A stretch of DNA of 64,000 nucleotides from Candidatus Hydrogenedens sp. Lineage in GTDB: Bacteria > Hydrogenedentota > Hydrogenedentia > Hydrogenedentales > Hydrogenedentaceae. The stretch lies in assembly GCA_035378955.1 (NCBI GenBank), contig DAOSUS010000008.1, positions 6,668-70,667 of the forward strand, written 5' to 3'. Every line of letters begins with the position of its first letter. The first letter of the stretch is position 1. The notes beneath the pieces were generated by a model. It made no database searches. It was not told the DNA's origin and was given only the letters and a program-made list of their open reading frames with translations. Shown piece after piece: positions 50-16,782 of this stretch. The position numbers and the translations under genes are program-made.

Positions 50-2356
50 TTAATTGTCTCCACCTGCTAATTTTTTAGTTAGATACTCCTCAAAAAAGGA
101 TTCCACAAAAATCCCTTTATTCTTCAAATCATAATATTCCTGCAATGCTTTTTTATAGTCTTTTTCTATAAAAATATCATCGAGGAGGTATTTCCATGAC
201 TGATATAGTCCATTTTCACTTTGTATAGCAGAATAGAACCATTTCTTCGCCTCCTCCTCATTATTTTCAGATAGAGCAATCACACCTAAGGCAATTCGAG
301 GAAGAGCAATATCAGGATTTATATCAACAATATGGTAAAGTTTTTCTTTTGTAATTTTAATATCTCCATTTATAGATGTCATAATAGCATCAAAACAAAG
401 GTATGCTAACTCCAAATTCTTATCCAACTGAATTGCTTTCTTAAGAAAATATTCTTTATATCTCGGACTTATACTTCTCTGGCTTGTTTGGTAATACCTC
501 AGAGATTTTGTAAGTTTTGGCACATCCCCTCTATCTTTTAGAGCATTATATAAATTTTGAAATTGCAACTTTTGTAATGGGTCATTACTTATTAATCTTT
601 CAATTAGATACATGGCACATTCTTTATGGTCTGTTTCAACATTAGCAAGAGCAAAATCAGATATTGTGAACTTTAAAAAATCGTTCTCTAATTCTTTGCC
701 CGTCCAACAAGAATATGTAATTTCTTCTTGAGGTAAAATTTTATATAACCGAATAGGTTCTATCCCATAGAAATCATAAGTCTCATATCGGATTTTGTTG
801 CTATTTAACAATTGCTCTAATTCATGAGAACCAAATTCCCCAAAATAAAAAGAAACATAAACAAACCAAATCTTATCCGTAAAACAACCTGATTTTTTCT
901 GAAACAGTTCCTGGGCAATTGAAATAAATGAATCTATATCTTCGACAAATGATATTGGTATGTTTTTATTTTTAAAGTTAAATGTAAAAACATCTTTATT
1001 TATTGCTTGATATACAAATACAGAAACCTTTTCTGTATTCAATGACTGTTGTTCTATAAAACGAGCCGTATTTCGCCAATTTGTTCTTTGAGGTCCAGGA
1101 AGAGTAATCAGTAATTGATAAAAAAATATGAGTATCAAAGAAAATATGAGAATATAATTTAATCTCCTTTTTTTATTTATCTTAATCAAATAGCCATAAA
1201 GAAAATATATTGCCAGGCTGCTATACAATGTGTATCGTGGAAAAATACATGGTCTCCATAAAATAGAAAGAATATATAAAAATATCGGGGGAACGAATGC
1301 TATCAGCAATAAAAGTATTACCTTGTTTTTTGTATCTAATTCTTCATCATTTCCTACCCTTTTGAAAATATACCTAATGGATAAAACAATCACCAGGATA
1401 GTTATTGATAACAAAAACAAATCCATAACTGGATGTATATTTATTAAATATTGGGGCAATACCTCTTTTATAATTCTTACCTGATATGTCATTCCTACAG
1501 CATCATCTGCAAACAAATCTCCGATGAATTCATATAAAGTTGGCTTTTTAAACCAGAAAGATTGTTCTTTAGAGTAATAATTTATGCTCATTACATACAA
1601 AACAGAAGGAATGCTAATTAATATTTGCAGAATAACAGGTAAATATTTTTCTTTGTTATCAATGTAAAAGATATAAAACAACCATAAAACTTCTATACCA
1701 ACAATAATCACAGCAAAAGGATGTGTCCATAATAGAAGTGCATTTACTAATGTTAAGGCAATCCAATTTTTCCTATTACTATTCTCAGCACATAAAAGCA
1801 AATAGTATATAGACAAAGCGAATAAAAAAGTCAGTAAAACATACATTCGTATTCCCTGACCAAAAAAACGATGTATCGGGGATATAGCAAAAAATAATCC
1901 TGCCACCAAACCTATCTTTTCTAAATTTAATTTTCTACCTATAAGAAATAGAACAGGGATTGTTATCACACTTAACAGAATAGAAAACAAACGAAGACCT
2001 AGAATAGACGGGGATACATAATGCCAGAAAAGGTATTCGAGTACATAATAAACAGGCATGGTTGCAGGGTCATAAAGGGGATTTAAATAAATAAACTCCT
2101 TTAAAGAGTCCGAATTAATATGAACTAAACTTGAATACTCATCCCACCAAACCGACTCATCGGAAATTTTATATATACGAACCCCAAAGGCTAATAAAAC
2201 AATAAGTAACCCAAAAGCAAATAGTTGTATATTATATTTTTGTTGTTCTTCTTTTCTTTCCACAGTATTGCCTTCAATCGTGATATTAAAAATAGAATTT
2301 TTATACTCACAGTTTAGCAATTGAATATTCGCAAATTCCATAGCCTTTTGTAGCAC
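50..2356 (-). CDS. GT-C fold membrane glycosyltransferase (PMT/ArnT-like, GT39/GT83-type) with C-terminal TPR repeats
   Basis: 768 aa. The N-terminal ~420 aa are polytopic membrane with the aromatic-rich loops typical of PMT/ArnT-type GT-C enzymes. The C-terminal ~300 aa are TPR-like helical repeats. It is a paralogue of the protein encoded at 10033-13803. Confidence 0.55.
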   Translation of the reverse strand: MLQKAMEFANIQLLNCEYKNSIFNITIEGNTVERKEEQQKYNIQLFAFGLLIVLLAFGVRIYKISDESVWWDEYSSLVHINSDSLKEFIYLNPLYDPATMPVYYVLEYLFWHYVSPSILGLRLFSILLSVITIPVLFLIGRKLNLEKIGLVAGLFFAISPIHRFFGQGIRMYVLLTFLFALSIYYLLLCAENSNRKNWIALTLVNALLLWTHPFAVIIVGIEVLWLFYIFYIDNKEKYLPVILQILISIPSVLYVMSINYYSKEQSFWFKKPTLYEFIGDLFADDAVGMTYQVRIIKEVLPQYLINIHPVMDLFLLSITILVIVLSIRYIFKRVGNDEELDTKNKVILLLLIAFVPPIFLYILSILWRPCIFPRYTLYSSLAIYFLYGYLIKINKKRRLNYILIFSLILIFFYQLLITLPGPQRTNWRNTARFIEQQSLNTEKVSVFVYQAINKDVFTFNFKNKNIPISFVEDIDSFISIAQELFQKKSGCFTDKIWFVYVSFYFGEFGSHELEQLLNSNKIRYETYDFYGIEPIRLYKILPQEEITYSCWTGKELENDFLKFTISDFALANVETDHKECAMYLIERLISNDPLQKLQFQNLYNALKDRGDVPKLTKSLRYYQTSQRSISPRYKEYFLKKAIQLDKNLELAYLCFDAIMTSINGDIKITKEKLYHIVDINPDIALPRIALGVIALSENNEEEAKKWFYSAIQSENGLYQSWKYLLDDIFIEKDYKKALQEYYDLKNKGIFVESFFEEYLTKKLAGGDN

Positions 2357-2489
2357 ATTGAGGAAATATAGAAACGCTAATACTATTCAAGGATGGGGAT
2401 AAAGATATATTAGGGATTTATCTAATGAATATTTTCCATTTGTCTTACCCCAAAAATGTTAAGATTTCACATCAAATACTTTTATCATT

Positions 2490-3641
2490 TCAGATAGCAT
2501 GAAAATATTTTTCATAAGTATGTGCTGGTATAGTGTGCAATTTACACAAAATCCACACAAACCATTTAAATTTTCGTAATAAAGGATAATATGAAGGATA
2601 GTCTGTGAAATATTTGTTTGGAGCATTAACAATTGCCTCAAACTCTTCTCGGCTTATACCCTGTTTTCTCAAACAATGTTCAATTCTTTCTTCATCCTCA
2701 AAAAACGGAATTTCTTGTAATGCTTTTAATGCGGATTCGCGTGATATTACACCTGTTCTGACTTTTGCTGATAATTCTACAACACGCCAATCAAAGCCAA
2801 ATTTCCTTCGAGCATAGTAATAAACAAGAGTAAACAGTTCATTATCTAAGTGATGTTGTCCTGTATCCTGCCAATCGAACTTTTCCTTAAGCAAGGTTTC
2901 GATTTTCTCTCCTGTATCATCATAATAATTTGTAATGTTAATTACTCGAATTCTTTTCCATAATATCCAATAAATCATATCCCAAAGTTCAACATTCTTA
3001 AAATGTTTTAATGGGATTTTACAATATCGTTCAATAATAGCCCTTGTGTATTTCCCATCAATATAATTCCACATAAGTGGGGTTACCCCTTCTTCACGGA
3101 AAGAATGGCTTAAAATAATATAACGAACATTTTCTGCAACTGCAGTCCTATATAAACTGCTTGCAATTCCTATATCATCTGTCAGGTCTATATAAGGGAC
3201 GCAGGCACGGATAGTTGCATTGGTTAATTCTCGTGATTCAGGCCAATCCATAATTATGGTATGTAATTCCACATCCAATTTATCGCAAAGTTTTGCGAGA
3301 TTGCTTTTGGCAATTTCTGAATCCCAACCATTATCGAAGTGGACAGCCAGAGGGCGTAAATTCATAATTTCTTTTACATAATACAAACAATAGGAAGTGT
3401 CTCTTCCTCCACTGACACCCACCACACAATCATATTTTTTCCCCCGTCCATCTCTTCTTATCTTCTCTGCTATCTTTTGTAATATCATGGCTCCTTGTTC
3501 CCCAACAGGGAACCGTTTATCTAACTTATCATGCATGTGGCAGAAATTACATACTCCTTGATTATCCAAATAAACCCCGGGAATAGATGTATCCATTACA
3601 CATCGCTTACATAATATTTTATCTTCATTTTGACGAATCAT
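2490..3641 (-). CDS. N-acetyl sugar amidotransferase (WbuX/LfnA-like PP-loop ATP pyrophosphatase)
   Basis: N-terminal Cys-rich motif (CKRC...CNFC) followed by a PP-loop (VGVSGGRDTSY). This matches the N-acetyl sugar amidotransferase family found beside HisH/HisF paralogues in O-antigen and legionaminic-acid clusters. Confidence 0.7.
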   Translation of the reverse strand: MIRQNEDKILCKRCVMDTSIPGVYLDNQGVCNFCHMHDKLDKRFPVGEQGAMILQKIAEKIRRDGRGKKYDCVVGVSGGRDTSYCLYYVKEIMNLRPLAVHFDNGWDSEIAKSNLAKLCDKLDVELHTIIMDWPESRELTNATIRACVPYIDLTDDIGIASSLYRTAVAENVRYIILSHSFREEGVTPLMWNYIDGKYTRAIIERYCKIPLKHFKNVELWDMIYWILWKRIRVINITNYYDDTGEKIETLLKEKFDWQDTGQHHLDNELFTLVYYYARRKFGFDWRVVELSAKVRTGVISRESALKALQEIPFFEDEERIEHCLRKQGISREEFEAIVNAPNKYFTDYPSYYPLLRKFKWFVWILCKLHTIPAHTYEKYFHAI

Positions 3642-3658
3642 ACATATACTACCTCTAT

Positions 3659-4477
3659 TTATAATCGTGATAATTCTAAATCAATAGGCTTTTTGGGGTC
3701 TCTTTTTCGAACATGCTCGGGTTTAAAATACTCTAATAGTTGTTCTTCTGTGGGATAAGTGATCAAAACAGTCCTCCGCGGACCGTAAAAAAGGAAAAAG
3801 GCTCCACATGCCACTGCAGAAACTCCCGATTGGTAATAGGCATCTGCCAAATCCTTAACAGAACCTGCCCCTCCACATGCGATTACTGGAATTTGAACAT
3901 TATCTGTAATCATTTTTATTAAGTCTAAATCATACCCTTCAAGTGTGCCATCTCTATCAATGCTTGTAATCAATATTTCTCCTGCACCCTCCGCCTCTGC
4001 TCTTTTTGCTAATTCCACAGGATTCAGACCTGTCGATTTTCGTCCTCCATGTGTAAACACTTCATATTTACCATTTATTCTACGAACATCCATTGACACT
4101 ACGATACACTGTCTCCCAAATTGTTCGGCTGATTTCTGCAATAAATTAGGAACCTCTACTACTGAAGTATTAAGGACTACTCTATCCGCCCCTGCATTCA
4201 GCAATTCTCTTATGGTATGAATATCGCGAATTCCACCTCCGACGGTAAACGGCATGGATGTTTCTGCCGATATTTGTTTAACAACTTCTATTTCTGGAGG
4301 GCGATTTTCAAGTGTCGCCACAATATCTAAAAGTATTAATTCATCAACATTATGTTGATTAAAAACACGAGCCGCGTTAATAGGACAACCCACATATTTC
4401 GGATTTGAAAACTGAATGGTTTTTTCCAAACCCCAATGTCGCAATAAAAGGACTGGTATTACTCTAACTTTTAGCAT
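3659..4477 (-). CDS. imidazole glycerol phosphate synthase cyclase-subunit paralogue (HisF-like, WbuZ-type)
   Basis: Start MLKVRVIPVLLL is HisF-like. Contains GGGIRD...AGADRV and a (beta/alpha)8 HisF signature. It overlaps the upstream HisH-like gene by 14 nt, which suggests translational coupling. Confidence 0.75.
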   Translation of the reverse strand: MLKVRVIPVLLLRHWGLEKTIQFSNPKYVGCPINAARVFNQHNVDELILLDIVATLENRPPEIEVVKQISAETSMPFTVGGGIRDIHTIRELLNAGADRVVLNTSVVEVPNLLQKSAEQFGRQCIVVSMDVRRINGKYEVFTHGGRKSTGLNPVELAKRAEAEGAGEILITSIDRDGTLEGYDLDLIKMITDNVQIPVIACGGAGSVKDLADAYYQSGVSAVACGAFFLFYGPRRTVLITYPTEEQLLEYFKPEHVRKRDPKKPIDLELSRL

Positions 4478-5129
4478 TTAACACCTCGTTCAAAAAATTT
4501 TGTAACAATAAAGCACCACCTATATAACTCTTTTCAGGATGAAACTGTGTTCCGTAAATGTTTTTATTTTGATATAAAGAAATAAAAGAAGTGCCGTATT
4601 CTGTTACCCCCAGATTTCCATCAATTTCTTTGAAAGGGACAAAATAAGAATGGGCAAAATAAAAATTAGGATTTTCTATCATTCCGGATAATAAAGACAA
4701 TTCATCTTTATAAACCTTTACATCGTTCCAACCGATATGAGGCACTCGAATAGGGCTTTTAACTACATTTCGTATATGGCAAACATTTACGGGTATCCAA
4801 CCTAATCCTTTCGACGGACCTTCTTCACTAAATTCTGTCATAATTTGAAAACCTAAACAAATACCTAAAATAGGTTTTTTTAATTCCAATACATAATAAT
4901 TTAATCTTCGGATCAAACCTATCTTTGTTAGAAAATCCATAGCACTACCACAAGCACCAACCCCTGGCAAAACAATACCATCAAATACATCCAGTTCGGT
5001 TTCTTTATTAACAATTTCAATAGAAACTCCTTTTTTTGCAAAAGCCTTATATACAGAATGTATATTTCCTGCCGAGTAATCAATAATCCCAATTTTTATT
5101 TTGTTATTTTGTGTGTTTTCCGTTTTCAT
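4464..5129 (-). CDS. class I glutamine amidotransferase, HisH-like (WbuY-type)
   Basis: Has the GICLGFQ catalytic Cys motif and a C-terminal QFHPEKS His/Glu pair. The likely start is MKTENTQ.. (the ORF track extends to 5159). Confidence 0.75.
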   Translation of the reverse strand: MKTENTQNNKIKIGIIDYSAGNIHSVYKAFAKKGVSIEIVNKETELDVFDGIVLPGVGACGSAMDFLTKIGLIRRLNYYVLELKKPILGICLGFQIMTEFSEEGPSKGLGWIPVNVCHIRNVVKSPIRVPHIGWNDVKVYKDELSLLSGMIENPNFYFAHSYFVPFKEIDGNLGVTEYGTSFISLYQNKNIYGTQFHPEKSYIGGALLLQNFLNEVLNAKS

Positions 5130-6849
5130 TAAAATTATCCTGACTTTGTGCCACCACAAAGTTATTTAAAAATAGATAATCCAATCCTGATTCTTTAAAT
5201 GTTTGTAATGCTTCTTCTGGAGTTCGAACAATAGGCGATTCATGCATGTTAAAACTTGTATTCAGCACTACACTGGTTCCTGATAAATTCTTGTAATGCT
5301 TCAATATTTCGTAAAAAGTCGGATTATTTTCTTTTTTTACAATTTGGGCTCGTGTTGTTCCATCTATATGAACGACCGCCTCATGTTGTTCTTTCATTTT
5401 TGGGGTACTTCGAAAACAGCATGTCATAAATTCACCTGCATGCATTGCCTTTTCATATCCTACCAAAAATTGTTCCGTATCCTCATCTAAAAGAGCAGGA
5501 GCAAAAGGCATAAAATCACTTCGTCTTAACATAGCATTTAATTTTTCCGTTATATTCCGCATTGTTGAATCACATAAAATAGAACGATTTCCCAAAGCAC
5601 GCGGTCCCCATTCCATTTTATCATAAAATCGTGCGATAATTTTTTTATGGTAAATACATTCTGCTATAAACGAAAATATTTGCTGACTATCAAGTTCCTT
5701 AAATGGAAGACCCAATTTAACTATTGCTGTTTTAATATCTTCATTACTAAAGTAATCTCCCCAAAATGCGTGAGGAAGTGATTTGGGATAGAATTGATAT
5801 TGCGAACATATCGCTCCTAAACTCAATCCTCCATCTCCCATATTGGGATATACAAATAATTCTTCGACTTCTTGCAACTCATGTATTCTTTGATTTAGCA
5901 ACACATTAGCAAATACCCCCCCTGCAACCGCTACTTTTTTAAGTCCTGTTTTATTTAGCCAATATCGGATTAAAGAGCAAATTGTCTGTTCTAAAATATT
6001 TTGGGACCATGCACATAAATCCTCTCGTGAATATTTATTTAATAAATGCAAAAGCCATTCTCTTAACTTTTTACCATAAGGGCCTTTATACGAAAGGAAA
6101 TCCTCGTTCCATGAAAAAGGGTTTTCATCTTCAATTTTGTTTGCATCTCCATGGGCGGAAAGTCCTGTAAGTTTTCCTTCATCTCTACATGGGACAAAGC
6201 CTAACACTTCTGTCAGATTTTCAAAAAACAAACCAAAAGAACTTTTTGCAGAGGATTTCCATAATCTCGTTACTGTATTTTCTTTTCCTTTAGAAATAGT
6301 CAAGGATAAACCGTCTCCCATTCCATCGGCAGTAACAATAAGGGCTTCATTATAACCTGAACAGAAATAACTTCCCCATGCATGGGCCTCGTGATGTTCA
6401 ATAAAATGAATAGGGATATTAGCAGGAAGAAACGGTAAGCGTTTGCGAATTATTTTTCTTAAAACGATAGATAGATTTTTTTTCATCCCGTCTGAAGGAT
6501 TGATATAGCTGATAGGATTATAGGAAACCGCCCATTCTGTAATGTTATTCCAGTAGGTCTCACTATTTTGATTTTTCTCTCTTCTGGAAAGAAATGCTTT
6601 TTTTTGCAAGTTAGGGAATAAACGGAAAAAAGGGAATGGGGTTACAAAACCTGAAACACATACTCCCTCTATGTCTTTCCATGTTAAACCTGTTTGCTTC
6701 AAAGCATTTTCCAGAGATAAGTATGGAAATCCTCCCTCATTTTTTCGTCGAGTGTATCGTTCCTCATTGGACATAAATAATATTTGGTCATCATTGCAAA
6801 TAGTAACACCTGCATCGAAAAAATCTTCACTAATTCCAAGTATTATCAT
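5104..6849 (-). CDS. carbamoyltransferase, NodU/CmcH family
   Basis: N-terminus MIILGIS..DAG...NEERYTRRKN is a Kae1/YgjD-like fold typical of NodU/CmcH O-carbamoyltransferases. There is a C-terminal YrdC-like region. Length is ~580 aa. Confidence 0.7.
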   Translation of the reverse strand: MIILGISEDFFDAGVTICNDDQILFMSNEERYTRRKNEGGFPYLSLENALKQTGLTWKDIEGVCVSGFVTPFPFFRLFPNLQKKAFLSRREKNQNSETYWNNITEWAVSYNPISYINPSDGMKKNLSIVLRKIIRKRLPFLPANIPIHFIEHHEAHAWGSYFCSGYNEALIVTADGMGDGLSLTISKGKENTVTRLWKSSAKSSFGLFFENLTEVLGFVPCRDEGKLTGLSAHGDANKIEDENPFSWNEDFLSYKGPYGKKLREWLLHLLNKYSREDLCAWSQNILEQTICSLIRYWLNKTGLKKVAVAGGVFANVLLNQRIHELQEVEELFVYPNMGDGGLSLGAICSQYQFYPKSLPHAFWGDYFSNEDIKTAIVKLGLPFKELDSQQIFSFIAECIYHKKIIARFYDKMEWGPRALGNRSILCDSTMRNITEKLNAMLRRSDFMPFAPALLDEDTEQFLVGYEKAMHAGEFMTCCFRSTPKMKEQHEAVVHIDGTTRAQIVKKENNPTFYEILKHYKNLSGTSVVLNTSFNMHESPIVRTPEEALQTFKESGLDYLFLNNFVVAQSQDNFNENGKHTK

Positions 6850-6879
6850 GAACAATCATTCCTTTGAAATAAAAACAAT

Positions 6880-7872
6880 TTATATCCAGAGAGCATTCCA
6901 GATTGCTGAAGGATTTAAATTCCATATTAGAGCAAGTTCCACTATCGGTGCACACCAACAAGTGGCACAACCTGTGGGTACAGTTAAATGAGTTATTAAG
7001 TTTTCAAAATCTTTTCCATTATCTTTATCTTTTTTCTGTTTATACAATTCTCGGGTTCCAAACAAATGACAAGAAAGTATGGTTCCATCTGGCTCAATTG
7101 TATATGTTAACCTACCAGCACAGCACCATATTTTTGTTGGATGAGGCCAGTTACTTAAATACTTTAAGCCTGCAAATGAATTACGGACAGGTGCCCCTTC
7201 TTTTTTCTTTCTTATTATATCCTGCATCGCATTATAATACGCTTCTTTATCAGGAGCAATAGGATTGGGTTTTAGCGATGAATCCAGATGTAATGTTGCA
7301 GGCTGAAACATTACCTTTGTATGTTCTTCCTGAGCCTTCTGTAAAACAAAATCTATTGTATTTATGTTTAGTTTGGAAATTACACATAAAAAAGAGGTGG
7401 ATATATTTTTCATCTTGCAATATTGCACTACTTCAAATAAACGCTTATAAGTACCCTTTCCCCGTATTTCATCATGTATTTCTTCAGGACCATCAAAACT
7501 CAAGTTAATATGGTCTATATACTTTTCAATCCCATCATATTTTTCTATATTAACACCCGTTGAACTTAAAAAAACATTTAATCCCAGTGATTTTGCATGT
7601 TCCAGAATTTTCATTATATCCTTTTTAATTAAAGGTTCTCCTCCACCAAATGTAATCCATCTCACCCCTGTTTTATATAAAATCGCCAATCGTTCTAATA
7701 TTTCATTTGTATCCAATTCATTCACAGATACTTCTCTTGAACCACAATAAAGGCATTGATAGGGGCAACGAAAAGTTATATTCCATTCCACAAATAATGG
7801 CGAATTTACTCCTAAAACCTTTGTTTTTATCCATGATTTTAATATGGTAGGAATATTTTTTATTTTATTCAT
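6880..7872 (-). CDS. radical SAM protein with C-terminal SPASM-like Cys cluster
   Basis: CxxxCxxC motif (CPYQCLYCG) with a GGGEP glycine-rich SAM motif. The C-terminus carries CCAG...C...CATCWC, an auxiliary Fe-S (SPASM/twitch-like) motif. Confidence 0.65.
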   Translation of the reverse strand: MNKIKNIPTILKSWIKTKVLGVNSPLFVEWNITFRCPYQCLYCGSREVSVNELDTNEILERLAILYKTGVRWITFGGGEPLIKKDIMKILEHAKSLGLNVFLSSTGVNIEKYDGIEKYIDHINLSFDGPEEIHDEIRGKGTYKRLFEVVQYCKMKNISTSFLCVISKLNINTIDFVLQKAQEEHTKVMFQPATLHLDSSLKPNPIAPDKEAYYNAMQDIIRKKKEGAPVRNSFAGLKYLSNWPHPTKIWCCAGRLTYTIEPDGTILSCHLFGTRELYKQKKDKDNGKDFENLITHLTVPTGCATCWCAPIVELALIWNLNPSAIWNALWI

Positions 7873-8825: not shown

Positions 8826-10022
8826 TTGTATATGATACCACGAAGATGGATACATATTTTACCCTCTGAATATAACGAAGTTCTAAATCCTTCCCACCCA
8901 TTACTATCGAATTACAATATTGTTTCTCAATGGGAAAAAGAGTTTGGTAATTTCATAGGTTCTCCCAATACGGTTGCACTTCCCTCCGGAAGAATTGGAC
9001 TTAAACTTATTTTACAATATTTGAACCTTCAAGAAAATGATGAAGTAATTATTCCAGCCCTAACATTGAAGGCATTGGTAAGTATTATCAAATCATTAGG
9101 TCTTAAACCCGTTTGTGCCGACATAGACCCTAAAACATTAAACATAGACCCCGAATCGGTACGCAATTTAATTACACCTCGAACCAAAGCCATTATCGCA
9201 TTACATACCTTTGGCAACCCCTGCCTAATTGAAGAAATATGTAAAATAGGACAGGAAAACAATATCCCTGTTATAGAAGATGCTGCTCATGCATGTGGCG
9301 CTAAAATACAAAATAAATTCGTAGGAACATTTGGATATGCGGGCTTTTTTAGTTTTGATATATCTAAACCTATAAATACATACGGTGGGGGAATGCTTGT
9401 TAGTGAAGACTTATCACTAATTGATTTCGTAAGAGAATATAATAAAAAACTAATTTTAGACACAACTGAAATAACCAAAAAAGCAAAGTCTATTAAGTTA
9501 GAACAGGCACTATATAAATTAAAACTTATGTATCCCATTCTCTTTTTAAGACTGTTCCGATTTTTCTTCAAGTCTCTGGAATTTGTATACCGTAAAATTC
9601 AAAGTGTTCCCCCTGAAAATATCCAATTTACACCTTTACAAGCAAGTATAGGTATAGAAAAGTTATCTTTACTAAATTCAAGAATAGCGCAAAGAAATGA
9701 AGTAGCACAATTATACCGCAAATTATTATCCGATAAAATTGATATTCCTTATGTAACTTCTGAATGTATACCTTCTTATTACATGTTTGTTGTTATTCTT
9801 CCTAAAAAATCTCATAACATCTGTAGATCTCTCCTTTTCCATGGAATAGATACCGCATTTAAAGAAGAGGTTATAGATGATGTGTCCCTATTAGTTGAAA
9901 AATCACATTGTCCAAATGCGAATGGAGTTTATCCCTATTTACTTGCGTTACCTTTCTATGATGTTATTTCAAAAGATACCATTGAATATATATGTAATTG
10001 CCTGAACGAACTTGTAGAATAA
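8826..10022 (+). CDS. DegT/DnrJ/EryC1/StrS family PLP-dependent sugar aminotransferase
   Basis: Motifs DAAHACGA and the lysine-containing SFDISKPI; fold-type I sugar aminotransferase length and layout. Confidence 0.75.
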   Translation: MYMIPRRWIHILPSEYNEVLNPSHPLLSNYNIVSQWEKEFGNFIGSPNTVALPSGRIGLKLILQYLNLQENDEVIIPALTLKALVSIIKSLGLKPVCADIDPKTLNIDPESVRNLITPRTKAIIALHTFGNPCLIEEICKIGQENNIPVIEDAAHACGAKIQNKFVGTFGYAGFFSFDISKPINTYGGGMLVSEDLSLIDFVREYNKKLILDTTEITKKAKSIKLEQALYKLKLMYPILFLRLFRFFFKSLEFVYRKIQSVPPENIQFTPLQASIGIEKLSLLNSRIAQRNEVAQLYRKLLSDKIDIPYVTSECIPSYYMFVVILPKKSHNICRSLLFHGIDTAFKEEVIDDVSLLVEKSHCPNANGVYPYLLALPFYDVISKDTIEYICNCLNELVE

Positions 10023-10032
10023 GTAAAAACTG

Positions 10033-13000
10033 TTAATCTGAAAATCCCATTTGTTTAAGCCTTTGTTTTACATCCTCGTTTTGAGGATTGAGTTCTATAA
10101 CTTCTGAAAATATCTTCTTTTCATTATCCTTATCACTTAATTTTATATATGTTTCCCCTAATTCTATTAATACCTCTGTAATTATCTCTTTTGGAGCCTC
10201 TTTTTCTTTTAGTTCTTTAATAGCCTTTTGATAAAGTTGTATTGCCTGTTGATAATCACCTATCTCTTTTTTAAATCCAGCATAGATTGCCCAACCTTCA
10301 CCATCACTGGGATAAATTTCTAATGCGGTCTTGTAAGCCTTTTCGGCTTCTTCATATCTTTTCTGCTTTCTATATAAGTTCCCTAAATTTCTCCACGCAA
10401 GAGGAAATCTATATTCTAAATTTACCGCCTCTTTTAAATGTTTTTCTGCTAAATCATATCTGTTAACCTGAAACGCATAAAAGCCTAATGTATTATGAAG
10501 ATTATGGTCCTGAGGTTGTTTCTCTAATGCCTTTTCAAAATATGGAATAACTTTTTCTAATTCACCTTTTGCATAAAAAGCTTCAGCAATATTATAGAGA
10601 GCATTTATCAGGTCGGGTTTTATAGACAAGGATTTTTGATAAAGTTCTATTGCTTTGTCAACATCCCCCGACAAAAAAGCATGATACCCTAAATTGTTAT
10701 ATGCCAGTGGATTTTTGTCATCTATTTCCAACGCTTTGTTATACATATCTTCCGCTTCTTTTGATTTTCCCATTCGGTCGTATAAAACCCCCAGGTCATA
10801 AGGGATATAAGAATTATTGGGGCTATTTACCATCGCCTTTTGATACAACTCTATTGCCTGCTCAGTATTCCCTTTCTTTTCTGCCAACTGAGCCAGATTA
10901 TAGTATGCCAATTCATCATTAGGTCTTATTTTTAATGCTTCATAAAATTTATTTTCCGCCTCGTCCCATTTGTTTAACTTAACTAATAAACTCCCCCAAT
11001 TATTTAATACTAATGTAAAATCAGGAACAACTTCTAATGCTTTTTTAAAGTGTTCTATGGCGTCTTCTGGTTTATCTTCCTGTATTAAGATAGCCAATTC
11101 TCGATGTGCCCGTGCATCTTTGGGGTTCATTTCTATTGCTTTTTCAAAATAAGAAATCGCTTCTTCTTTTTTCCCCATTCTCGACAATACCTGCGCTATC
11201 ATATAATAAACATTTTGAGAATTCGGGTCAATATTTAACGCCAACTTCAACTTTTCTAACGATTTTTCATATTCTCCCCTATTGGCATAAATAGCACCCA
11301 TTTTGGCAATCACATAACAAAATTGGGGATAGGCTTCTAATGCTTTTTCATAGCAGGTAATCGCTTGTTCGTAGTCCTTCTTCAATTCCATAATCTCCCC
11401 TAATTCATTCCATGCCCGAGCATCTCGAATATTTAATTCTATCGCCCTTCGAAAATAATTCTCTGCTTCATCTATTCTTTCCTGTTTCTTTAAGACACAC
11501 CCTAAAAGATAAACACTATCTTGATACTCCGAATTTAGTTCAATGGCCTTTTTAAAGTTATTTTCAGCCTCTGTCAAATTATCTTTGGCAAAAAGAATTC
11601 TTCCTAATTGTTCATAAGCATAGGCAAAATCAGGTCTGACGGACACTGCTTGCCGATAATATTTCTCTGCTGTGTCCCATTCCCCTTCATCTGCATGAAT
11701 GTTCCCCAACTCACAAAGTGCTCTTGCATCCTTAGGATTTAACTCTACCGCTTTTAACAAAGTATCTCGTGCTTCTTCAATTCGACCCAAATTTTTCAAC
11801 TCTCGACCTATAAGAAAGTATACATCCTGATAGGAAGGGTCTGTTTCTAATGCCTTCTGGTAAAAAGCCAAGGCATCTTCTGACCGTCCTTGTGATGAAA
11901 GTATTCTGCCATATTTATCCAGGACATAAGTAAAATCAGGAACGATTTGTAAAGCCTTCTCATAATGAGAAAGGGCTTCCTTCCAATTTCCCTGATGTTC
12001 TAAAATTTCTCCTATTTCATTGTGAGAACGGGCATCATTCGGATTTAATTCAAGAGATTTTTTAAAATATTTTTCCGCATTTACTTCATCTTTCAAGGCA
12101 AGATAGGTTTTTCCAAGATAATAAAACATATCCTGATAACTCGGGTCTAATCGGATACCTTTTTCAAATTGTTCTTTTGCTTCTTTAAAGTAACCCGATT
12201 TAAATAAATCTTTACCTAAACGATGGTGCATATAGGGCAAACTTTTAGGCATGTAAAGAAGGGTTTGTGCTTCTTCCAGAGCCTTTTGAACTTCACCCCT
12301 CCTTAAATACGAATCTGCTCGTTGATAATGCCATCGTGCTAAATCAGGCTCAAAGGGAACCCATCGGACAGAAATTAAAATAAAACTTATAAGGAGAATT
12401 GACAACCAACGAGTTAAGGATAAAGCATTTTTATTTTTAATGCACAACCCTAAGAAATAAATAAAGTTAGCACCTATTAAAAAGAATAGGGGAAGAACAG
12501 GAACTCTTGCTCTCCCGTTCACAAAAAACATTAAGAAACTACCTAAATAGGTAATAATGAATAAATAAATTAATAACAGCAATTCAACGGAATAAGAACC
12601 ACTCGAACAAAAAAGAAGATTAGAAATACTTTCTTTGTTCAACCCAGATCTCATATTAAAAAGAAGGAGAAGGGTCCCTGCAATAAAAAGTCCTCCCGCC
12701 CATGGAAAAGTAGGGAGATATTTCAACGGAGGGTAATGCTTTATCTCATAATACACAACTTTATTACAAGTAATTTCGATAGGGCACCAGAGAAGAATTG
12801 CTTTTTTTAATACCTGTATAATCGTTTCCTTAGGATGTGTTTTAATATATTCTATTGCTTTTTGTGTAAATATTTTCGAAGCATCTGCATGTTTCAAATT
12901 TTTTATCCCCAATTCTCTACCTAATCCTTTCACCACATTCACATAATCACGGGCTGTCCAGTTCCCGGTTCCTTCTAATTTCTGCAAATATTGGTTCCAT

Positions 13001-13803
13001 GGCGTTGTCCCATCGGATTCCGGGTTATTACCTATAAAAAGATTTTCACCAAAATATGTAGAAATAAGGACCCATTCTCCTGAAGCAATATAGTTGCGGA
13101 GAGTAATCGGTATAATGGGAACAAAAGTAAAAATAAAAAGAACAATCCATGATGGAATAAACAAAAAATATTTTTTTTTCTTAAATGTAATCCATGCCAT
13201 CCATAAGGCTATAAAAGGTCCAAAAGATAATATATTGGGTCTCATACTTGCATAAGCACCAATGGATAACCCTAAAGGAATACACCAATACCATTTTTTA
13301 TGAATACTCCAACGATATAGTATATAAAAAATAAGAACAACCAAAAAGACGAATAAGGCAGGGTCATTTACTTCTCCTTCCCAGTAGATAAAAACACTAT
13401 ATGTAGCAACTAAAAAACTAAAAATGAGCCCCACAACTTCATTAAATATAGCCCTCCCTAAATAAAATGACAAAAGGACCGTTAATATACCTGCTATGGC
13501 ATTAACAATACGAGGAGTTAGATAACTATCGGAAATAAAACGATAAAGGAAACTTAAAAAATACCCATGACCCGGTGGACGAAAAAAAGGAGTCGTTCGC
13601 ATTTCTGGGTCGGTTACACCTTCAGGAACACTCCAATCCCCCGTTACTATAGCACGAGCAAAATAATCCTGTACTTCCGGGTCCTGTTGAAGGGCTGAAT
13701 AATCAGGAGCGTATTTATATACTTCATAAAGATACCAAACTCTTAAAATTGTTGCGATGAGAAGGATAAGGAATAAAACAAACCTGACTTTATTTTCCTT
13801 CAC
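10033..13803 (-). CDS. GT-C (PMT/ArnT-like) membrane glycosyltransferase fused to a long TPR array (~18 repeats)
   Basis: 1256 aa. The N-terminal ~480 aa membrane domain resembles PMT/ArnT. The remainder is a continuous run of 34-aa TPR repeats with the W-LG-Y-A-F-P pattern. Confidence 0.6.
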   Translation of the reverse strand: MKENKVRFVLFLILLIATILRVWYLYEVYKYAPDYSALQQDPEVQDYFARAIVTGDWSVPEGVTDPEMRTTPFFRPPGHGYFLSFLYRFISDSYLTPRIVNAIAGILTVLLSFYLGRAIFNEVVGLIFSFLVATYSVFIYWEGEVNDPALFVFLVVLIFYILYRWSIHKKWYWCIPLGLSIGAYASMRPNILSFGPFIALWMAWITFKKKKYFLFIPSWIVLFIFTFVPIIPITLRNYIASGEWVLISTYFGENLFIGNNPESDGTTPWNQYLQKLEGTGNWTARDYVNVVKGLGRELGIKNLKHADASKIFTQKAIEYIKTHPKETIIQVLKKAILLWCPIEITCNKVVYYEIKHYPPLKYLPTFPWAGGLFIAGTLLLLFNMRSGLNKESISNLLFCSSGSYSVELLLLIYLFIITYLGSFLMFFVNGRARVPVLPLFFLIGANFIYFLGLCIKNKNALSLTRWLSILLISFILISVRWVPFEPDLARWHYQRADSYLRRGEVQKALEEAQTLLYMPKSLPYMHHRLGKDLFKSGYFKEAKEQFEKGIRLDPSYQDMFYYLGKTYLALKDEVNAEKYFKKSLELNPNDARSHNEIGEILEHQGNWKEALSHYEKALQIVPDFTYVLDKYGRILSSQGRSEDALAFYQKALETDPSYQDVYFLIGRELKNLGRIEEARDTLLKAVELNPKDARALCELGNIHADEGEWDTAEKYYRQAVSVRPDFAYAYEQLGRILFAKDNLTEAENNFKKAIELNSEYQDSVYLLGCVLKKQERIDEAENYFRRAIELNIRDARAWNELGEIMELKKDYEQAITCYEKALEAYPQFCYVIAKMGAIYANRGEYEKSLEKLKLALNIDPNSQNVYYMIAQVLSRMGKKEEAISYFEKAIEMNPKDARAHRELAILIQEDKPEDAIEHFKKALEVVPDFTLVLNNWGSLLVKLNKWDEAENKFYEALKIRPNDELAYYNLAQLAEKKGNTEQAIELYQKAMVNSPNNSYIPYDLGVLYDRMGKSKEAEDMYNKALEIDDKNPLAYNNLGYHAFLSGDVDKAIELYQKSLSIKPDLINALYNIAEAFYAKGELEKVIPYFEKALEKQPQDHNLHNTLGFYAFQVNRYDLAEKHLKEAVNLEYRFPLAWRNLGNLYRKQKRYEEAEKAYKTALEIYPSDGEGWAIYAGFKKEIGDYQQAIQLYQKAIKELKEKEAPKEIITEVLIELGETYIKLSDKDNEKKIFSEVIELNPQNEDVKQRLKQMGFSD

Positions 13804-13870
13804 ACACTTTTCCTTATATATCTATCTGAGCAAGATAACTAAATTAAAAAATATAAAAAACCCAACAAAA

Positions 13871-14023
13871 TTACAAAGCGTATATAAATGGCGAGATTAC
13901 TCCAGCATTTCCCGCGAAGATAAATAAGGCAGCCAGTAATAACAGAGTAATAATAATAGGAGCCAGCCAATATCTCTTTCTAACCTTTAAGAAATCCCAG
14001 AACTCTTTTAATAATTCTTTCAT
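13871..14023 (-). CDS. small single-TM protein (50 aa), DUF5989-like
   Basis: ORF found by hand (below the 60-aa cut-off of the track). It translates to MKELLKEFWDFLKVRKRYWLAPIIITLLLLAALFIFAGNAGVISPFIYAL, which resembles a conserved small membrane protein family often encoded next to carbamoyltransferase or glycan genes. Confidence 0.4.
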   Translation of the reverse strand: MKELLKEFWDFLKVRKRYWLAPIIITLLLLAALFIFAGNAGVISPFIYAL

Positions 14024-14108
14024 GAATAATGTCTCCATAATCGTATTTTATAATTTATTATACAAAATTTGATTATTCTCATGGGAAAGGAATAAATAAA
14101 CAGAAAAA

Positions 14109-14723
14109 TTATTTATCGATACTCTTCACTTTCATTAAAAAAGGCATAATAAGTTCCTGTATTTTTATTCCTATTTCTTCAACCCTTCTTAAATATAGAT
14201 GATAGGCTACTAATGATGGAATTGCAATAATTAATCCAACTACCGTTGTTATAAGTGCTTTGGATATCCCTTGTGCCAACATCTGTGCATTTCCAATTCC
14301 ACCTACTGTGATTACATTGAATATATCTACCATACCTAAAACAGTCCCAAGTAAACCCAATAAGGGGCTAATCACAGATATTATCTGTAATACAGTTAGA
14401 CCTCGTTCTAAATATGTTATTTGAGTTCGACCTAATGTATTAATATGTTCAACAAGAACATCTTTGGGCTCACTACGAAGATTGATTATTTCATTTACAA
14501 GTATGCCGAGAGGTGAAACATTCCGCTGAGATACAGAACGGATAGTTTCTAAATCTTTTAACATATTAGGATAAGAAAGTAATTGAGTAAGGTTCTCAGG
14601 GATATTCTTTTTCATCCTTAATGCAAAAAAACGCTCTAATATTATGGCTAAGGCTATTACAGAGCATATCCCAAGTGGAAACATAACCCACCCACCTTGA
14701 TATATCATATTCATCCAATTCAT
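14109..14723 (-). CDS. MotA/TolQ/ExbB proton-channel family protein
   Basis: 3 TM helices and the conserved C-terminal GLLGTV.GM...A.GI..ALITT motif. Confidence 0.8.
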   Translation of the reverse strand: MNWMNMIYQGGWVMFPLGICSVIALAIILERFFALRMKKNIPENLTQLLSYPNMLKDLETIRSVSQRNVSPLGILVNEIINLRSEPKDVLVEHINTLGRTQITYLERGLTVLQIISVISPLLGLLGTVLGMVDIFNVITVGGIGNAQMLAQGISKALITTVVGLIIAIPSLVAYHLYLRRVEEIGIKIQELIMPFLMKVKSIDK

Positions 14724-14738
14724 ATAAAACTCCTTTTA

Positions 14739-15713
14739 TCAATACATAAAACTAAATGTCCACCGAATTTGCAAATTTTTATTGCTATATATATCTGATA
14801 CCTGAAACGGAAAAGGCGAAAAGGGTGCCGATTTTTGTAACGATTGTTTACAAATAGCTAAAAATAATGGGTCTTCAGGTTCTCCAATTACATCTATTCT
14901 AACAATTTTACCCTCTGGATTTATCTCACAATCAATTACAACTTCTGTAGGTTTTGTTCCAGAATAGCGTGTATATAAATAGTGACGCCAATATTTTTCT
15001 ACCCTTTGCTGGATTTCTTTCAAATAGGGCGCCAATTGGTCTTGAAGTGCTTCGTAACCCAGTATTCCTATTTTTTTTACTTGATTATAAATTTTCCCTT
15101 GTGGTTTCTGGAGTGCCTTTCCTGAATATTCAGGTTCTAAAACTTCTTCTGGATTTTGCTTTTCTATTAATGGGTTCTCGTCTATTTTATCCTCTTTTTT
15201 TAATAGTATTGCTTCCTCCTTTTCCTTATGAGGTGTTCCCTCAACAGGGAGTTCATTTTTCTTTTTCTCCGTTTCCTTAGCTTGTATTTTAGGCGGTTTC
15301 TTCGTCTGAGGAATAACATTAGCAACCTGGATTTTTTCCGTTTTAGAACCTAATGTTTCAATTTTTGAATTTTCAATTAACGGAGGTCCAGGAGTATCTC
15401 CTTCTTTTGTAACAGGACCAGAAGATATCGAATTAGCCTCTGCAATATTTTCAGTTTTTGAGGGAATTTCATCTGTTGGTTCTACAACTTCCACCAGTTT
15501 TTTAATTGATTCTTGTTGTTCTTGTTTTAAAAATTCTACCCTTATAATTTTTTCTTTTGAAATATAGGGGGTTAATTTTGAATAGGAAGAGGTTCCCATG
15601 AAAAGCCCAAGAATAAAGCAATGAAATATTAATGAAAACAATAGATAAACAAACATTGTTTTCGTATAATTCATTTGCTTTCCGTTTGGGCTTAAGGAAA
15701 AATGGTCATTCAT
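14739..15713 (-). CDS. TonB-like energy transducer (N-terminal TM anchor, Pro/Lys/Glu-rich spacer, TonB C-terminal domain)
   Basis: The layout is TM (aa ~20-40) then a PEK-rich linker. The C-terminus VVIDCEINPEGKIVRIDVIGE...PFSPFP matches the TonB C-terminal domain pattern. No exbD/tolR gene is adjacent. Confidence 0.5.
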   Translation of the reverse strand: MNDHFSLSPNGKQMNYTKTMFVYLLFSLIFHCFILGLFMGTSSYSKLTPYISKEKIIRVEFLKQEQQESIKKLVEVVEPTDEIPSKTENIAEANSISSGPVTKEGDTPGPPLIENSKIETLGSKTEKIQVANVIPQTKKPPKIQAKETEKKKNELPVEGTPHKEKEEAILLKKEDKIDENPLIEKQNPEEVLEPEYSGKALQKPQGKIYNQVKKIGILGYEALQDQLAPYLKEIQQRVEKYWRHYLYTRYSGTKPTEVVIDCEINPEGKIVRIDVIGEPEDPLFLAICKQSLQKSAPFSPFPFQVSDIYSNKNLQIRWTFSFMY

Positions 15714-15735
15714 TAGAAGTTAGTTATTTTCGGGT

Positions 15736-16782
15736 TTATTTGCCCAATTTAGTAAAAATAATTTTTTCATTTTCAACAAGATATGAATATGATATATCCA
15801 ACCACTGAAAAGTCAACAAATCAAGGGCTAATTTGAGTTTCATTTTATTTAAGTAACATGGGTTCACAGGTAAATTTTCTGTCCCGGGCATCATTTCAAT
15901 GGTCAGTCCTGTTTGATTTGCAAGAACTGGAGCCACTTTAGATAATGGTAATGCTCCTTCATAAAAAGGAAGAGAAACTTTTCTATCCAACGGAACGGAT
16001 TTGGGTAAGGAAATTATTACTTCTTTATCCAATAAGGATTGTTTTGTCTCTGGGTTGAAGATTTTACAATCAACAAGTTGGTCCATTCGCATATTTAATG
16101 TAGTATAGAAAAATATAAAATCGTCAGTAGCACACCACCGAATATTCTGGGGAACAATACGGGCACTCTTTAATATCATTTCCAATGCTATACTTAAAGG
16201 CTTCTGAGAAATAACCACCTCCCCTACGGGTAACTCTGCTATGCTATTATCGGCAACAATATTACAACCATAAGTAAAATTCAGACTATTGAGAACATTA
16301 AATAATTTCGTCCCTGCTCCGAACCCTGCTGTTACTGTTATATGTTCATATTTTGAGGGAAATTTACCCATTAAAGACAATCGTGTCAGGTTTTCGTATA
16401 TAGATTGTTCCGTCGGGTATAAAAAATAATAATCATTTACTTCCTGCAAAGACATATTTGTCTTTTCAGATATTTGCTGAATTAAATTAGCCATTTCCTT
16501 TTCAGGTTTATCAATTTGAACCCATCGTGTTTCAGCACCATTAACAATGGAAATAGATATAGGGTATTCTCCTCCTAATCTTCTGACAATAACATTTAAT
16601 AAAGCCGATTCCTTAATAAGGTCAAAAACATTTTCATTTTGTATCATCTCATCAAGGGAATTACTTCGTTCTTCTTTCGGAGTAGATTTGCAAGATAGGT
16701 TTACAAAAATAAGAAGAATACATATCCCAATGAAATATAATATTTTTTTCTGCATAGATTTTCTCATAAAGTAATACAACAC
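15736..16782 (-). CDS. hypothetical secreted protein / possible lipoprotein
   Basis: N-terminal signal (MQKKILYFIGICILLIFVNLSC). No recognisable catalytic motif. It is the first gene of the minus-strand cluster; an alternative start at 16755 is likely. Confidence 0.35.
   Translation of the reverse strand: MLYYFMRKSMQKKILYFIGICILLIFVNLSCKSTPKEERSNSLDEMIQNENVFDLIKESALLNVIVRRLGGEYPISISIVNGAETRWVQIDKPEKEMANLIQQISEKTNMSLQEVNDYYFLYPTEQSIYENLTRLSLMGKFPSKYEHITVTAGFGAGTKLFNVLNSLNFTYGCNIVADNSIAELPVGEVVISQKPLSIALEMILKSARIVPQNIRWCATDDFIFFYTTLNMRMDQLVDCKIFNPETKQSLLDKEVIISLPKSVPLDRKVSLPFYEGALPLSKVAPVLANQTGLTIEMMPGTENLPVNPCYLNKMKLKLALDLLTFQWLDISYSYLVENEKIIFTKLGK

Follow-up and report, generated by a model that had tools for sequence, protein, structure and literature searches.

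A gene module pairing an amidotransferase trio and a carbamoyltransferase with GT-C glycosyltransferases in Candidatus Hydrogenedens: a possible extracytoplasmic glycosylation system

Genes and layout of the locus

The DNA analysed here, referred to as the window, is a 64,000-nt stretch of a contig from a Candidatus Hydrogenedens species. Positions 50–13803 encode two GT-C glycosyltransferases, a PP-loop amidotransferase with HisH- and HisF-type partners, a carbamoyltransferase, a radical S-adenosyl-L-methionine (SAM) enzyme, an LPG_synthase_TM membrane protein and a DegT aminotransferase. This gene content had been proposed in an earlier note on the same DNA and is borne out by Pfam and NCBIfam profile searches; the open reading frame (ORF) boundaries agree exactly with the coordinates given there. 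An amidotransferase trio accompanied by a carbamoyltransferase, a DegT enzyme, a radical SAM enzyme and GT-C delivery is a fair description of the locus, the genes of which are as follows.

50–2356, minus strand: GT-C_A glycosyltransferase (PMT_2), 768 residues; Pfam PMT_2 27.4 bits (cutoff 26.1)
2490–3641, minus strand: PP-loop N-acetyl-sugar-amidotransferase-like enzyme (WbuX/WbpG/NASAT family); TIGR03573 224.4 bits (cutoff 203.2)
3659–4477, minus strand: HisF2/AglZ/WbuZ-type TIM barrel, ammonia-channel partner; NF038364 330.5 bits (cutoff 310)
4464–5159, minus strand: HisH/WbuY-type class-I glutaminase, longest ORF 231 residues (221-residue start called); GATase 71.6 bits, TIGR01855
5104–6855, minus strand: TobZ/NovN/NodU-family carbamoyltransferase; Carbam_trans_N 98.7 bits, Carbam_trans_C 188 bits
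6880–7872, minus strand: radical SAM enzyme, 330 residues; Pfam Radical_SAM
7869–8801, minus strand: LPG_synthase_TM/flippase-like polytopic membrane protein; PF03706 74.5 bits
8826–10022, plus strand: DegT/DnrJ/EryC1 sugar aminotransferase dependent on pyridoxal phosphate; PF01041 218 bits
10033–13803, minus strand: second GT-C, 1256 residues, with a PMT_2 N-terminal domain of about 480 residues and a tetratricopeptide-repeat (TPR) array of about 750 residues; PMT_2 39.7 bits over residues 1–570 (cutoff 26.1)

From the LPG_synthase_TM gene through the amidotransferase gene the intergenic spacing ranges from −56 to +24 nt (overlaps being negative), and this spacing is the operon signal. One or two operons had been proposed for the region; the tight spacing of this block agrees with that proposal, whereas the co-directionality also invoked is weak evidence because 37 of the 50 ORFs in the window lie on the minus strand. 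The degT gene diverges from the LPG_synthase_TM gene, with starts 24 nt apart, and converges with the gene for the 1256-residue GT-C, with ends 10 nt apart. The latter gene and the tailoring genes must therefore be transcribed separately, implying at least two minus-strand units. A consensus scan of positions 1–17600 returned fewer promoter-like sites than shuffled sequences and no useful terminators, and did not delimit the transcripts. The glycan locus had been extended to position 16782, but 14109–16782 encodes a MotA/ExbB protein, a weak TonB_2 match and a lipoprotein-like ORF rather than glycan enzymes and is separated from the glycan genes by a gap of 305 nt. These three genes, the lipoprotein-like one coding for 348 residues, form a tight trio (gaps of 15 and 22 nt) upstream of the gene for the 1256-residue GT-C.

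The amidotransferase passes its TIGR03573 cutoff narrowly. It contains the PP-loop SGGRDT at residues 77–82, with Thr in the last position, and the tetracysteine motif C11xxC14…G29-V-C31xxC34, which fit the published definition of the NASAT family (PP-loop SGGXDS and tetracysteine CXXCXn[GN]XCXXC; PMC10607449). The match to 8wex, the sole solved NASAT structure, is 35 bits. The neighbouring TIM-barrel protein can be aligned with HisF structures over its whole length. Its score above the cutoff for NF038364 and below that for the true hisF model TIGR00735 (231.4 bits against 294.55), together with a Leu in place of the cyclase catalytic Asp11 (‘pvlllrh’ against ‘PCLDVKD’), rules out a role in histidine biosynthesis. 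The HisH-type glutaminase, the gene of which overlaps that of HisF2 by 14 nt, retains the motifs GICLGFQ and FHPEKS; TIGR01855 does not distinguish it from true HisH. The assignment of the pair as dedicated HisH/HisF paralogues, made in the earlier note, is thus upheld by the AglZ/WbuZ-type character of HisF2 and the intact motifs of HisH. A natural fusion of a WbuX-like amidotransferase with a His_biosynth (HisF-type) domain (protein P0090, 656 residues) supports physical coupling of the amidotransferase and the HisF-type protein.

The carbamoyltransferase combines a Kae1-like and a YrdC-like domain, with the HHEAH metal motif, DGMGDG and NTSFN, and matches NovN (9s2t) and TobZ (3ven) with about 185 bits (160–188 bits to solved members). 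It had been called NodU-type; membership in the wider Carbam_trans_N/C family is confirmed, but the NodU equivalog NF041651 is missed (86.8 bits against a cutoff of 1000).

In the radical SAM enzyme, C36xxxC40xxC43 lies near the N-terminus and an N-terminal RRE domain is absent. Residues C250, G263, C268, C302, C305 and C307 are conserved in the C-terminal auxiliary-cluster region. C250-x12-G263-x4-C268 corresponds to the first half of the SPASM seven-cysteine motif (CX9-15GX4C…CX2CX5CX3C…C), from which C302xxC305xC307 deviates. The best NCBIfam matches, PTO1314 and PqqE, all fall below their cutoffs, and the family is narrow and mostly confined to Hydrogenedentota, with distant homologues that carry PF13186. 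An AlphaFold (AF2) model with a predicted local distance difference test (pLDDT) score of 91 matches CteB, SkfB, SuiB, PqqE, anSME and BlsE, with sequence identities of no more than 21% among the structural matches listed. The best length-matched fold is that of BlsE (7vob), a sugar-nucleoside twitch enzyme (TM-score 0.67/0.67). Of the radical SAM/SPASM assignment made previously, the Radical_SAM domain, the twitch/SPASM-like fold and the five conserved C-terminal cysteines hold, whereas Pfam SPASM (PF13186) produced no match at E ≤ 1. A role in maturing ribosomally synthesized and post-translationally modified peptides was considered and set aside as unlikely: CxxxCxxC starts at residue 36, there is no RRE, and the flanking gaps of −4 and +24 nt leave no space for a precursor-peptide gene.

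The LPG_synthase_TM protein is encoded by the first gene of the tailoring operon and matches the flippase-like model TIGR00374 with 32 bits, under its cutoff of 43. For the DegT enzyme the best NCBIfam matches are LegC, PseC and ArnB, all below their cutoffs.

Sequence searches of the PDB were uninformative for both GT-C proteins, with no match for the 768-residue protein and TPR proteins as the sole matches for the N-terminus of the 1256-residue protein, so that a fold comparison was needed. The 768-residue protein, for which gene callers choose a 763-residue start, comprises about 11–13 transmembrane helices, a periplasmic α/β domain (residues ∼427–545) and a TPR-like helical array (residues ∼559–763). 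Its AlphaFold model, calculated from 45 homologues (pLDDT 91, predicted template-modelling score 0.88), matches STT3, PglB, AglB, ArnT, Pmt4 and ALG9/12 in Foldseek and has the GT-C_A fold, with a Foldseek probability of 1.00 against STT3, PglB, ArnT and Pmt4. The motif W70-x-D72-E73 in the first external loop is kept in at least 93% of the 45 homologues, and D72-E73 in at least 96%. BLAST found no similarity between this protein and the 1256-residue GT-C. Neither protein matches Wzy_C/O-antigen ligase in Pfam, and no WaaL or Wzy occurs among the 50 best structural matches listed for the 768-residue protein; with PMT_2 above its cutoff in both and the GT-C_A fold of the model, the view of these proteins as PMT/ArnT-type transferases rather than O-antigen ligases or polymerases is sustained. 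Neither matches PMT (PF02366), MIR or PMT_4TMC in Pfam, which sets them apart from GT39 protein O-mannosyltransferases, and the ‘family 39’ labels that NCBI attaches to their homologues are automatic names. Pfam detects the TPR array, and does not detect DUF1736, in the GT-C/TPR proteins. The TPR and α/β domains would select the acceptor.

The left edge of the window truncates the locus. About 10 kb more, with five further associated genes, is present on contigs of the same organism (L001 and L002; the numbers L001–L093 denote homologous loci from scanned genomes and contigs). The amidotransferase copies on these metagenome contigs are identical to that of the window, and the copy in Candidatus Hydrogenedens terephthalaticus (L013) is 97% identical. 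Past the gene for the 768-residue GT-C, and convergent with it, L001 and L002 carry the following genes.

Beyond the left edge (L001/L002): α/β hydrolase
Beyond the left edge (L001/L002): secreted protein of 489 residues with no known function
Beyond the left edge (L001/L002): B12-binding radical SAM protein; HpnJ 186 bits (cutoff 578) and BchE 180 bits, far below the cutoffs
L001 17680–18831: AglJ/PpgS-like GT2 with about four C-terminal transmembrane helices; AglJ 140 bits and PpgS 76 bits, below the cutoffs
Beyond the left edge (L001/L002): third PMT_2/TPR protein, a paralogue with 36% identity to the 1256-residue GT-C

The earlier note advised looking for nucleotide-sugar dehydratase or epimerase genes just outside the window; the roughly 10 kb flanking the locus on each side contain none. 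It also named as the expected lipid-linked donor synthase a GT2 further along the window:

46069–47079, plus strand: GtrB/ArnC/PgfS-like GT2 with C-terminal transmembrane helices; PgfS 204 bits and ArnC 140 bits, both below the cutoffs

This protein is of the right type, being PgfS/ArnC-like, but nothing ties it to the locus: it lies 29 kb away, between genes for a TauE exporter and a PP2C phosphatase, and a nearer GT2 is found at L001 17680–18831. The best matches of the latter are dolichyl- and polyprenyl-phosphate sugar synthases, and it is the better candidate for, and the likely, dedicated donor synthase. The genes for the TauE/SafE exporter, the GtrB/ArnC/PgfS-like GT2 and the Stp1-type PP2C phosphatase (45125–48042) are co-directional with gaps of 8 and 33 nt, an odd trio without an obvious shared function.

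Genomic company of the amidotransferase in other phyla

A scan for the amidotransferase with one genome per species yielded 80 loci. In the resulting tree the window protein falls in a clade separate from classical WbuX, with at least 57% identity within the clade across Hydrogenedentota, Planctomycetota, Nitrospirales, Elusimicrobia and Terriglobales; its identity to classical members, which come from Bacteroidota, archaea, Chloroflexota, Proteobacteria and other groups, does not exceed 45%. The suggestion that the locus encodes a WbuXYZ-type acetamidino-sugar trio is therefore correct as to family cutoffs and motifs, and the phylogeny proposed as a check confirms a NASAT-family member, but one that belongs to a distinct clade outside classical WbuX and keeps different genomic company. 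A carbamoyltransferase is encoded near the amidotransferase in 12 of 26 loci of the clade, in three of nine loci of a sister clade and in none of 51 classical loci (15/35 against 0/51 for clade and sister combined; Fisher P = 1.5 × 10−7). A PMT_2 GT-C is encoded nearby in nine of 26, two of nine and one of 51 loci, respectively (11/35 against 1/51; Fisher P = 1.4 × 10−4); both statistics are computed from locus counts that ignore phylogenetic non-independence. With this clade-specific carbamoyltransferase partner, the amide substrate of the amidotransferase may be an N-acetyl group or another.

A Pfam census compared nine carbamoyltransferase-bearing loci of the clade (106 neighbours) with nine classical loci (110 neighbours). 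The leading families in the clade are Radical_SAM, His_biosynth, Carbam_trans, B12-binding, PMT_2, TPR, GATase, DegT, GT2 and LPG_synthase_TM. Common among the classical neighbours are DegT, GT1, GDP_Man_Dehyd/Epimerase, Bac_transf, GFO_IDH_MocA and Hexapep acetyltransferases, which is the make-up of ordinary O-antigen and capsule clusters; GT1, Bac_transf, GDP_Man_Dehyd/Epimerase, GFO_IDH_MocA and Hexapep are all absent from the best 25 families of the nine clade loci.

Gene order is kept over considerable distances. The succession LPG_synthase_TM, radical SAM enzyme, carbamoyltransferase, HisH, HisF2 and amidotransferase recurs in the Hydrogenedentota loci L010, L012 and L020, and in L093 without the amidotransferase, the LPG_synthase_TM gene heading the module in all four. 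The carbamoyltransferase–HisH–HisF2–amidotransferase order is preserved in Nitrospirales (L017) and Pirellulaceae (L022), and this block or a close variant of it is also present in Planctomycetaceae (L027) and Elusimicrobia (L028); in L028 the carbamoyltransferase directly precedes oversized HisF2 and amidotransferase ORFs, and two PMT_2 genes lie ahead of the block. An orthologue of the 768-residue GT-C follows the amidotransferase directly in Nitrospirales L017 and Hydrogenedentes L020, and the 1256-residue GT-C adjoins the module only within the genus Hydrogenedens. DegT is part of the module in Hydrogenedens (L012, L014 and L015), Pirellulaceae (L022) and Planctomycetaceae (L026 and L027).

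The position of the radical SAM gene, which is present in Hydrogenedentota and in L022, is occupied by a GFO/IDH/MocA oxidoreductase in Planctomycetaceae L027, where DegT adjoins it, and in Elusimicrobia L058. This replacement suggests that the radical SAM enzyme may provide an oxygen-independent oxidation before transamination, the known analogy being BtrN against NeoA.

In six of the nine sister-clade loci, HisH and HisF2 are replaced by a CN_hydrolase (a nitrilase-superfamily glutaminase) encoded directly upstream of the amidotransferase, as in Elusimicrobia L058 (3919–8604 of the metagenome-assembled contig PWOI01000190.1) and in L032, L035, L036, L040 and L053. Glutaminases of the CN_hydrolase type are also found in glutamine-dependent NAD synthetase. 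The exchange is apparently a non-orthologous swap of the ammonia donor, and as such lends independent support to a real ammonia-dependent amidotransfer step.

Further observations concern the wider distribution of these genes. On the 3.5-Mb contig ctg97496l the module is split, the amidotransferase gene lying alone at 2.87 Mb (L005) and a GT9–LPG_synthase_TM–radical SAM–carbamoyltransferase–HisH–HisF2 block at 3.29 Mb (L093). In L093, IS630 transposase genes are located about 2 kb downstream of the block, and the GT9 heptosyltransferase-family gene at its head is a possible hint of a link to the lipopolysaccharide (LPS) core. The Hydrogenedens relative L012 encodes two B12-radical SAM paralogues (11260–12705 and 17594–19039) that are 29% identical; a B12-radical SAM gene directly follows the amidotransferase in L012 (one paralogue), in Pirellulales L006, L024 and L025 and in Bacteroidales L091, so that this pairing also recurs on its own.

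Predicted pathway, known systems and competing explanations

With about an even chance of being correct, positions 50–13803 and the 10 kb to their left are interpreted as a lipid-carrier-dependent, GT-C-mediated extracytoplasmic glycosylation system for an amidino/carbamoyl amino sugar. The enzyme families, the intact catalytic motifs, the tight operon layout and the recurrence of the module in several phyla are all observed. A sugar of the N-acetylhexosamine type, linked to a nucleotide or to polyprenyl phosphate, would be tailored on the cytoplasmic side of the membrane: the twitch/SPASM-like radical SAM enzyme may oxidize or otherwise activate a ring position, DegT would add an amino group and the TobZ-type enzyme would carbamoylate the product via a carbamoyl-adenylate. 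The PP-loop amidotransferase is predicted to adenylate an amide carbonyl and to exchange its oxygen for ammonia, which would be supplied from glutamine through the private HisH/HisF2 channel, giving a cationic amidine. The B12-radical SAM protein encoded outside the window perhaps adds a further modification. The AglJ/PpgS-like GT2, likewise outside the window, would load the sugar onto polyprenyl phosphate, the LPG_synthase_TM protein is a candidate flippase of the lipid-linked sugar, and the 768-residue PMT_2 GT-C would attach the sugar to an acceptor at the external membrane surface, as probably would the two long TPR-bearing paralogues in the genus Hydrogenedens. The underlying logic of lipid-sugar synthase, flippase and GT-C is established in other systems (PMC11127046).

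Several points weigh against this interpretation. Substrate, product and acceptor are predictions, and the matches of the GT2, DegT, radical SAM and flippase-like proteins all fall below equivalog cutoffs and do not fix specific activities; the flippase role of the LPG_synthase_TM protein is that of an unproven candidate. Tailoring might occur either before or after lipid loading. The genes for the GT2, the B12-radical SAM protein and the third GT-C lie outside the window and are known only from contigs of the same species (L001, L002 and L013). Clustering is not obligatory, the amidotransferase being solitary in L005 and L008 and accompanied by a B12-radical SAM protein alone in L006, and more distant Hydrogenedentota loci (L010) lack both DegT and the long TPR GT-Cs. 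The Fisher statistics above carry no correction for shared ancestry.

The proposed system resembles several known ones in part. With the WbpG, WbuX–WbuY–WbuZ and AglX–AglY–AglZ trios (PMC10607449) it shares the SGGxD[ST] and tetracysteine zinc motifs, adjacent private HisH and HisF proteins and scores above the cutoffs for the X and Z components. It differs in that the amidotransferase belongs to a separate clade, is sometimes alone in the genome and otherwise keeps company with a carbamoyltransferase, radical SAM enzymes and GT-Cs rather than the dehydratase, GFO oxidoreductase, acetyltransferase, GT1 and phosphoglycosyltransferase of classical loci. Like the three-component systems GtrA/B/C, ArnC/EF/T, LgmA/B, FlmF2/K, CsbB/GtcA/YfhO and the GT136 pentofuranose system (PMC11127046), it encodes together a polyprenyl-phosphate-type GT2 (here outside the window and below the cutoffs), a candidate flippase and a GT-C. 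In contrast to these, the flippase candidate belongs to the LPG_synthase_TM family and is not a GtrA, SMR-type or MATE protein, the donor is apparently tailored by six dedicated enzymes, and the GT-Cs bear TPR arrays and number up to three paralogues per locus. The carbamoyltransferase has the two-domain Kae1-like and YrdC-like architecture and the metal/ATP motifs of TobZ, NovN, GdmN and NodU, but is fixed upstream of an ammonia-channel/amidotransferase trio and misses the NodU equivalog cutoff; no report was found in the literature of a characterized member of this group in such a context. The radical SAM enzyme is similar to BlsE, BtrN, anSME and DesII in its N-terminal CxxxCxxC without an RRE, its cysteine-rich C-terminal auxiliary region and its fold match to BlsE, and differs in its low identity to the structural matches listed, its lack of Pfam SPASM and its narrow, mostly Hydrogenedentota family.

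TMTC1–4 and TMEM260 of eukaryotes are protein O-mannosyltransferases that combine a GT-C with lumenal TPRs (PMC7801869; PMC10214176). The GT-Cs of the locus have in common with them an ArnT-like GT-C_A fold, a non-cytoplasmic C-terminal TPR array and an acidic motif in the first loop; they differ in lacking a DUF1736 match, in a donor that is unlikely to be mannose, in being bacterial and in lying within a sugar-tailoring operon. This likeness is the sole basis for the protein O-glycosylation of which the earlier note saw a candidate system, and as an analogy it makes such a role possible rather than probable. As an estimate, protein Ser/Thr residues and LPS or lipid A/core are given equal weight as acceptors, somewhat below that of some other glycan or lipid. 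An Arn/Lgm/Flm-like modification of lipid A and protein O-glycosylation are about equally plausible.

As a distinct explanation of the whole locus, such a charge modification, in which the GT-C would decorate lipid A or the LPS core with an amidino sugar carried on undecaprenyl phosphate, making the surface less negative, is considered rather improbable. An amidine is cationic like Ara4N, GlcN and GalN, and DegT, the GT2 and the GT-C parallel ArnB, ArnC and ArnT, with sub-threshold ArnB and ArnC matches for the first two and ArnT among the structural matches of the third; in one genome (L093) the module is immediately preceded by a gene of the GT9 heptosyltransferase family. Enzymes of the ArnT/LgmB/FlmK type, however, lack TPR arrays, STT3 and PglB outrank ArnT among the fold matches, the neighbourhood contains no lipid A genes and the single GT9 neighbour is anecdotal. 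The locus might instead encode an ordinary WbpG/WbuXYZ acetamidino-sugar nucleotide pathway that feeds a Leloir-type O-antigen or capsule encoded elsewhere, with the GT-C/TPR genes as unrelated neighbours. That the WbuX and AglZ/HisF2 models score above curated cutoffs, and that DegT is also common beside classical WbuX genes, would agree with this; it is judged quite unlikely in view of an amidotransferase in its own clade and no more than 45% identical to classical members, and of PMT_2 GT-Cs that recur beside the module in four phyla. Moreover, GT1, initiating phosphoglycosyltransferase, Wzx/Wzy, dehydratase, epimerase and acetyltransferase genes are not among the common neighbours of the nine censused clade loci, though these families are common in the nine classical loci. 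A lipid-headgroup pathway resembling hopanoid hpnI/hpnJ/hpnL, in which a GT2, ring contraction by the B12-radical SAM protein and the LPG_synthase_TM protein would yield a lipid bearing a modified amino-cyclitol or amino sugar and not a glycan for transfer, is very unlikely. The best NCBIfam match of the flanking B12-radical SAM protein is indeed HpnJ, over its full length, the GT2 is adjacent and LPG_synthase_TM is the family type of HpnL; but the HpnJ score of 186 bits lies far below the cutoff of 578 and is nearly equalled by BchE at 180, the GT2 matches polyprenyl-phosphate synthases and not HpnI, and the LPG_synthase_TM protein has no HpnL match. Neither a squalene-hopene cyclase nor other hpn genes are present in the window or its flanks, and the repeated association with GT-Cs implies that the lipid-linked sugar serves as a donor for a further transfer. 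Membership in the hopanoid hpnI/J/K/L module itself was rejected on the HpnJ score, the lack of HpnI and HpnL matches and the absence of hopanoid genes nearby.

A further explanation retains the GT-C delivery and alters the chemistry. In the classical WbpB/E/D/G logic the substrate amide of the amidotransferase is produced by a WbpD-type acetyltransferase. In the alternative, the carbamoyltransferase would N-carbamoylate the amine installed by DegT after radical SAM or NAD-dependent oxidation, and the amidotransferase would adenylate and aminate the carbonyl of the resulting ureido group to give a guanidino group and with it a strongly cationic sugar, so that the carbamoyltransferase/HisH/HisF2/PP-loop block would constitute a previously unrecognized guanidino-sugar route, with TPR GT-Cs attaching the sugar to envelope proteins or LPS, in four groups (Hydrogenedentota, Planctomycetota, Nitrospirales and Elusimicrobia). 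The carbamoyltransferase occurs directly upstream of HisH–HisF2–WbuX only in the clade and its sister, no acetyltransferase is among the common clade neighbours whereas Hexapep is frequent in classical loci, an oxidase (radical SAM or GFO_IDH_MocA) and DegT accompany the module in two phyla, and the divergence of the clade would fit a changed substrate. PP-loop enzymes are known to act on ureido carbonyls, as in argininosuccinate synthetase (ArgG). The solved relatives of the carbamoyltransferase are, however, all O-carbamoyltransferases, N- and O-carbamoylation are not distinguished by sequence, DegT is missing from clade loci L010, L017, L020 and L028, and we know of no guanidino sugar from bacterial envelopes. 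Such a route is regarded as speculative and, on balance, unlikely, and a system that delivers an amidino/carbamoyl amino sugar by way of a lipid carrier and GT-Cs is preferred.

Other genes of the window and implications

Several other genes lie elsewhere in the window. Directly to the right of the studied region, at 17495–21760, a 546-residue FHA-GAF-adenylate/guanylate cyclase protein is encoded beside an 845-residue HEAT-repeat protein. A GFO/IDH/MocA oxidoreductase follows at 21780–23108, 5 kb to the right of the region described in the earlier note; as this family also occurs inside the module in L027 and L058, a link is possible. A complete resistance–nodulation–division efflux set (23280–29984; outer-membrane factor, AcrB-type pump and HlyD-type adaptor) appears ordinary. 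The radical SAM gene at 31063–32049, followed by a Memo–AMMECR1 fusion at 32272–33807, looks like an AmmeMemoRadiSam system, after which comes an unusual 1185-residue protein (within 31063–37367) with spermine-synthase-like, FMN_bind and Fer4_5 domains. At 56508–60005 lie genes for two uncharacterized proteins, namely a DUF6786 member (554 bits) and a radical SAM protein of 708 residues that bears a long N-terminal extension.

Each enzyme family of the locus is known, and it is the combination of genes that was not met in the literature: no description was found of a module uniting this amidotransferase clade with a carbamoyltransferase, radical SAM enzymes, LPG_synthase_TM and TPR GT-Cs and lacking Leloir assembly genes. 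The conserved module is recognizable by an oxidase (radical SAM or GFO), DegT, a carbamoyltransferase, an ammonia donor, the PP-loop amidotransferase, a B12-radical SAM protein and a PMT_2 GT-C. Judging from these neighbourhoods, genome annotations as ‘N-acetyl sugar amidotransferase’ would span at least two functionally different clades. If the proposed system is real, it would link the acetamidino-sugar amidotransferase trio, familiar from O-antigen and flagellin glycans, with periplasmic glycosylation by lipid carrier and GT-C, two subjects so far studied apart, and would do so in phyla with almost no experimental glycobiology. A module that can be expressed heterologously may offer a route to a new cationic sugar and possibly to new amidine or guanidine chemistry, and the system would provide a first function for a very large, uncharacterized family of bacterial PMT_2/TPR proteins.

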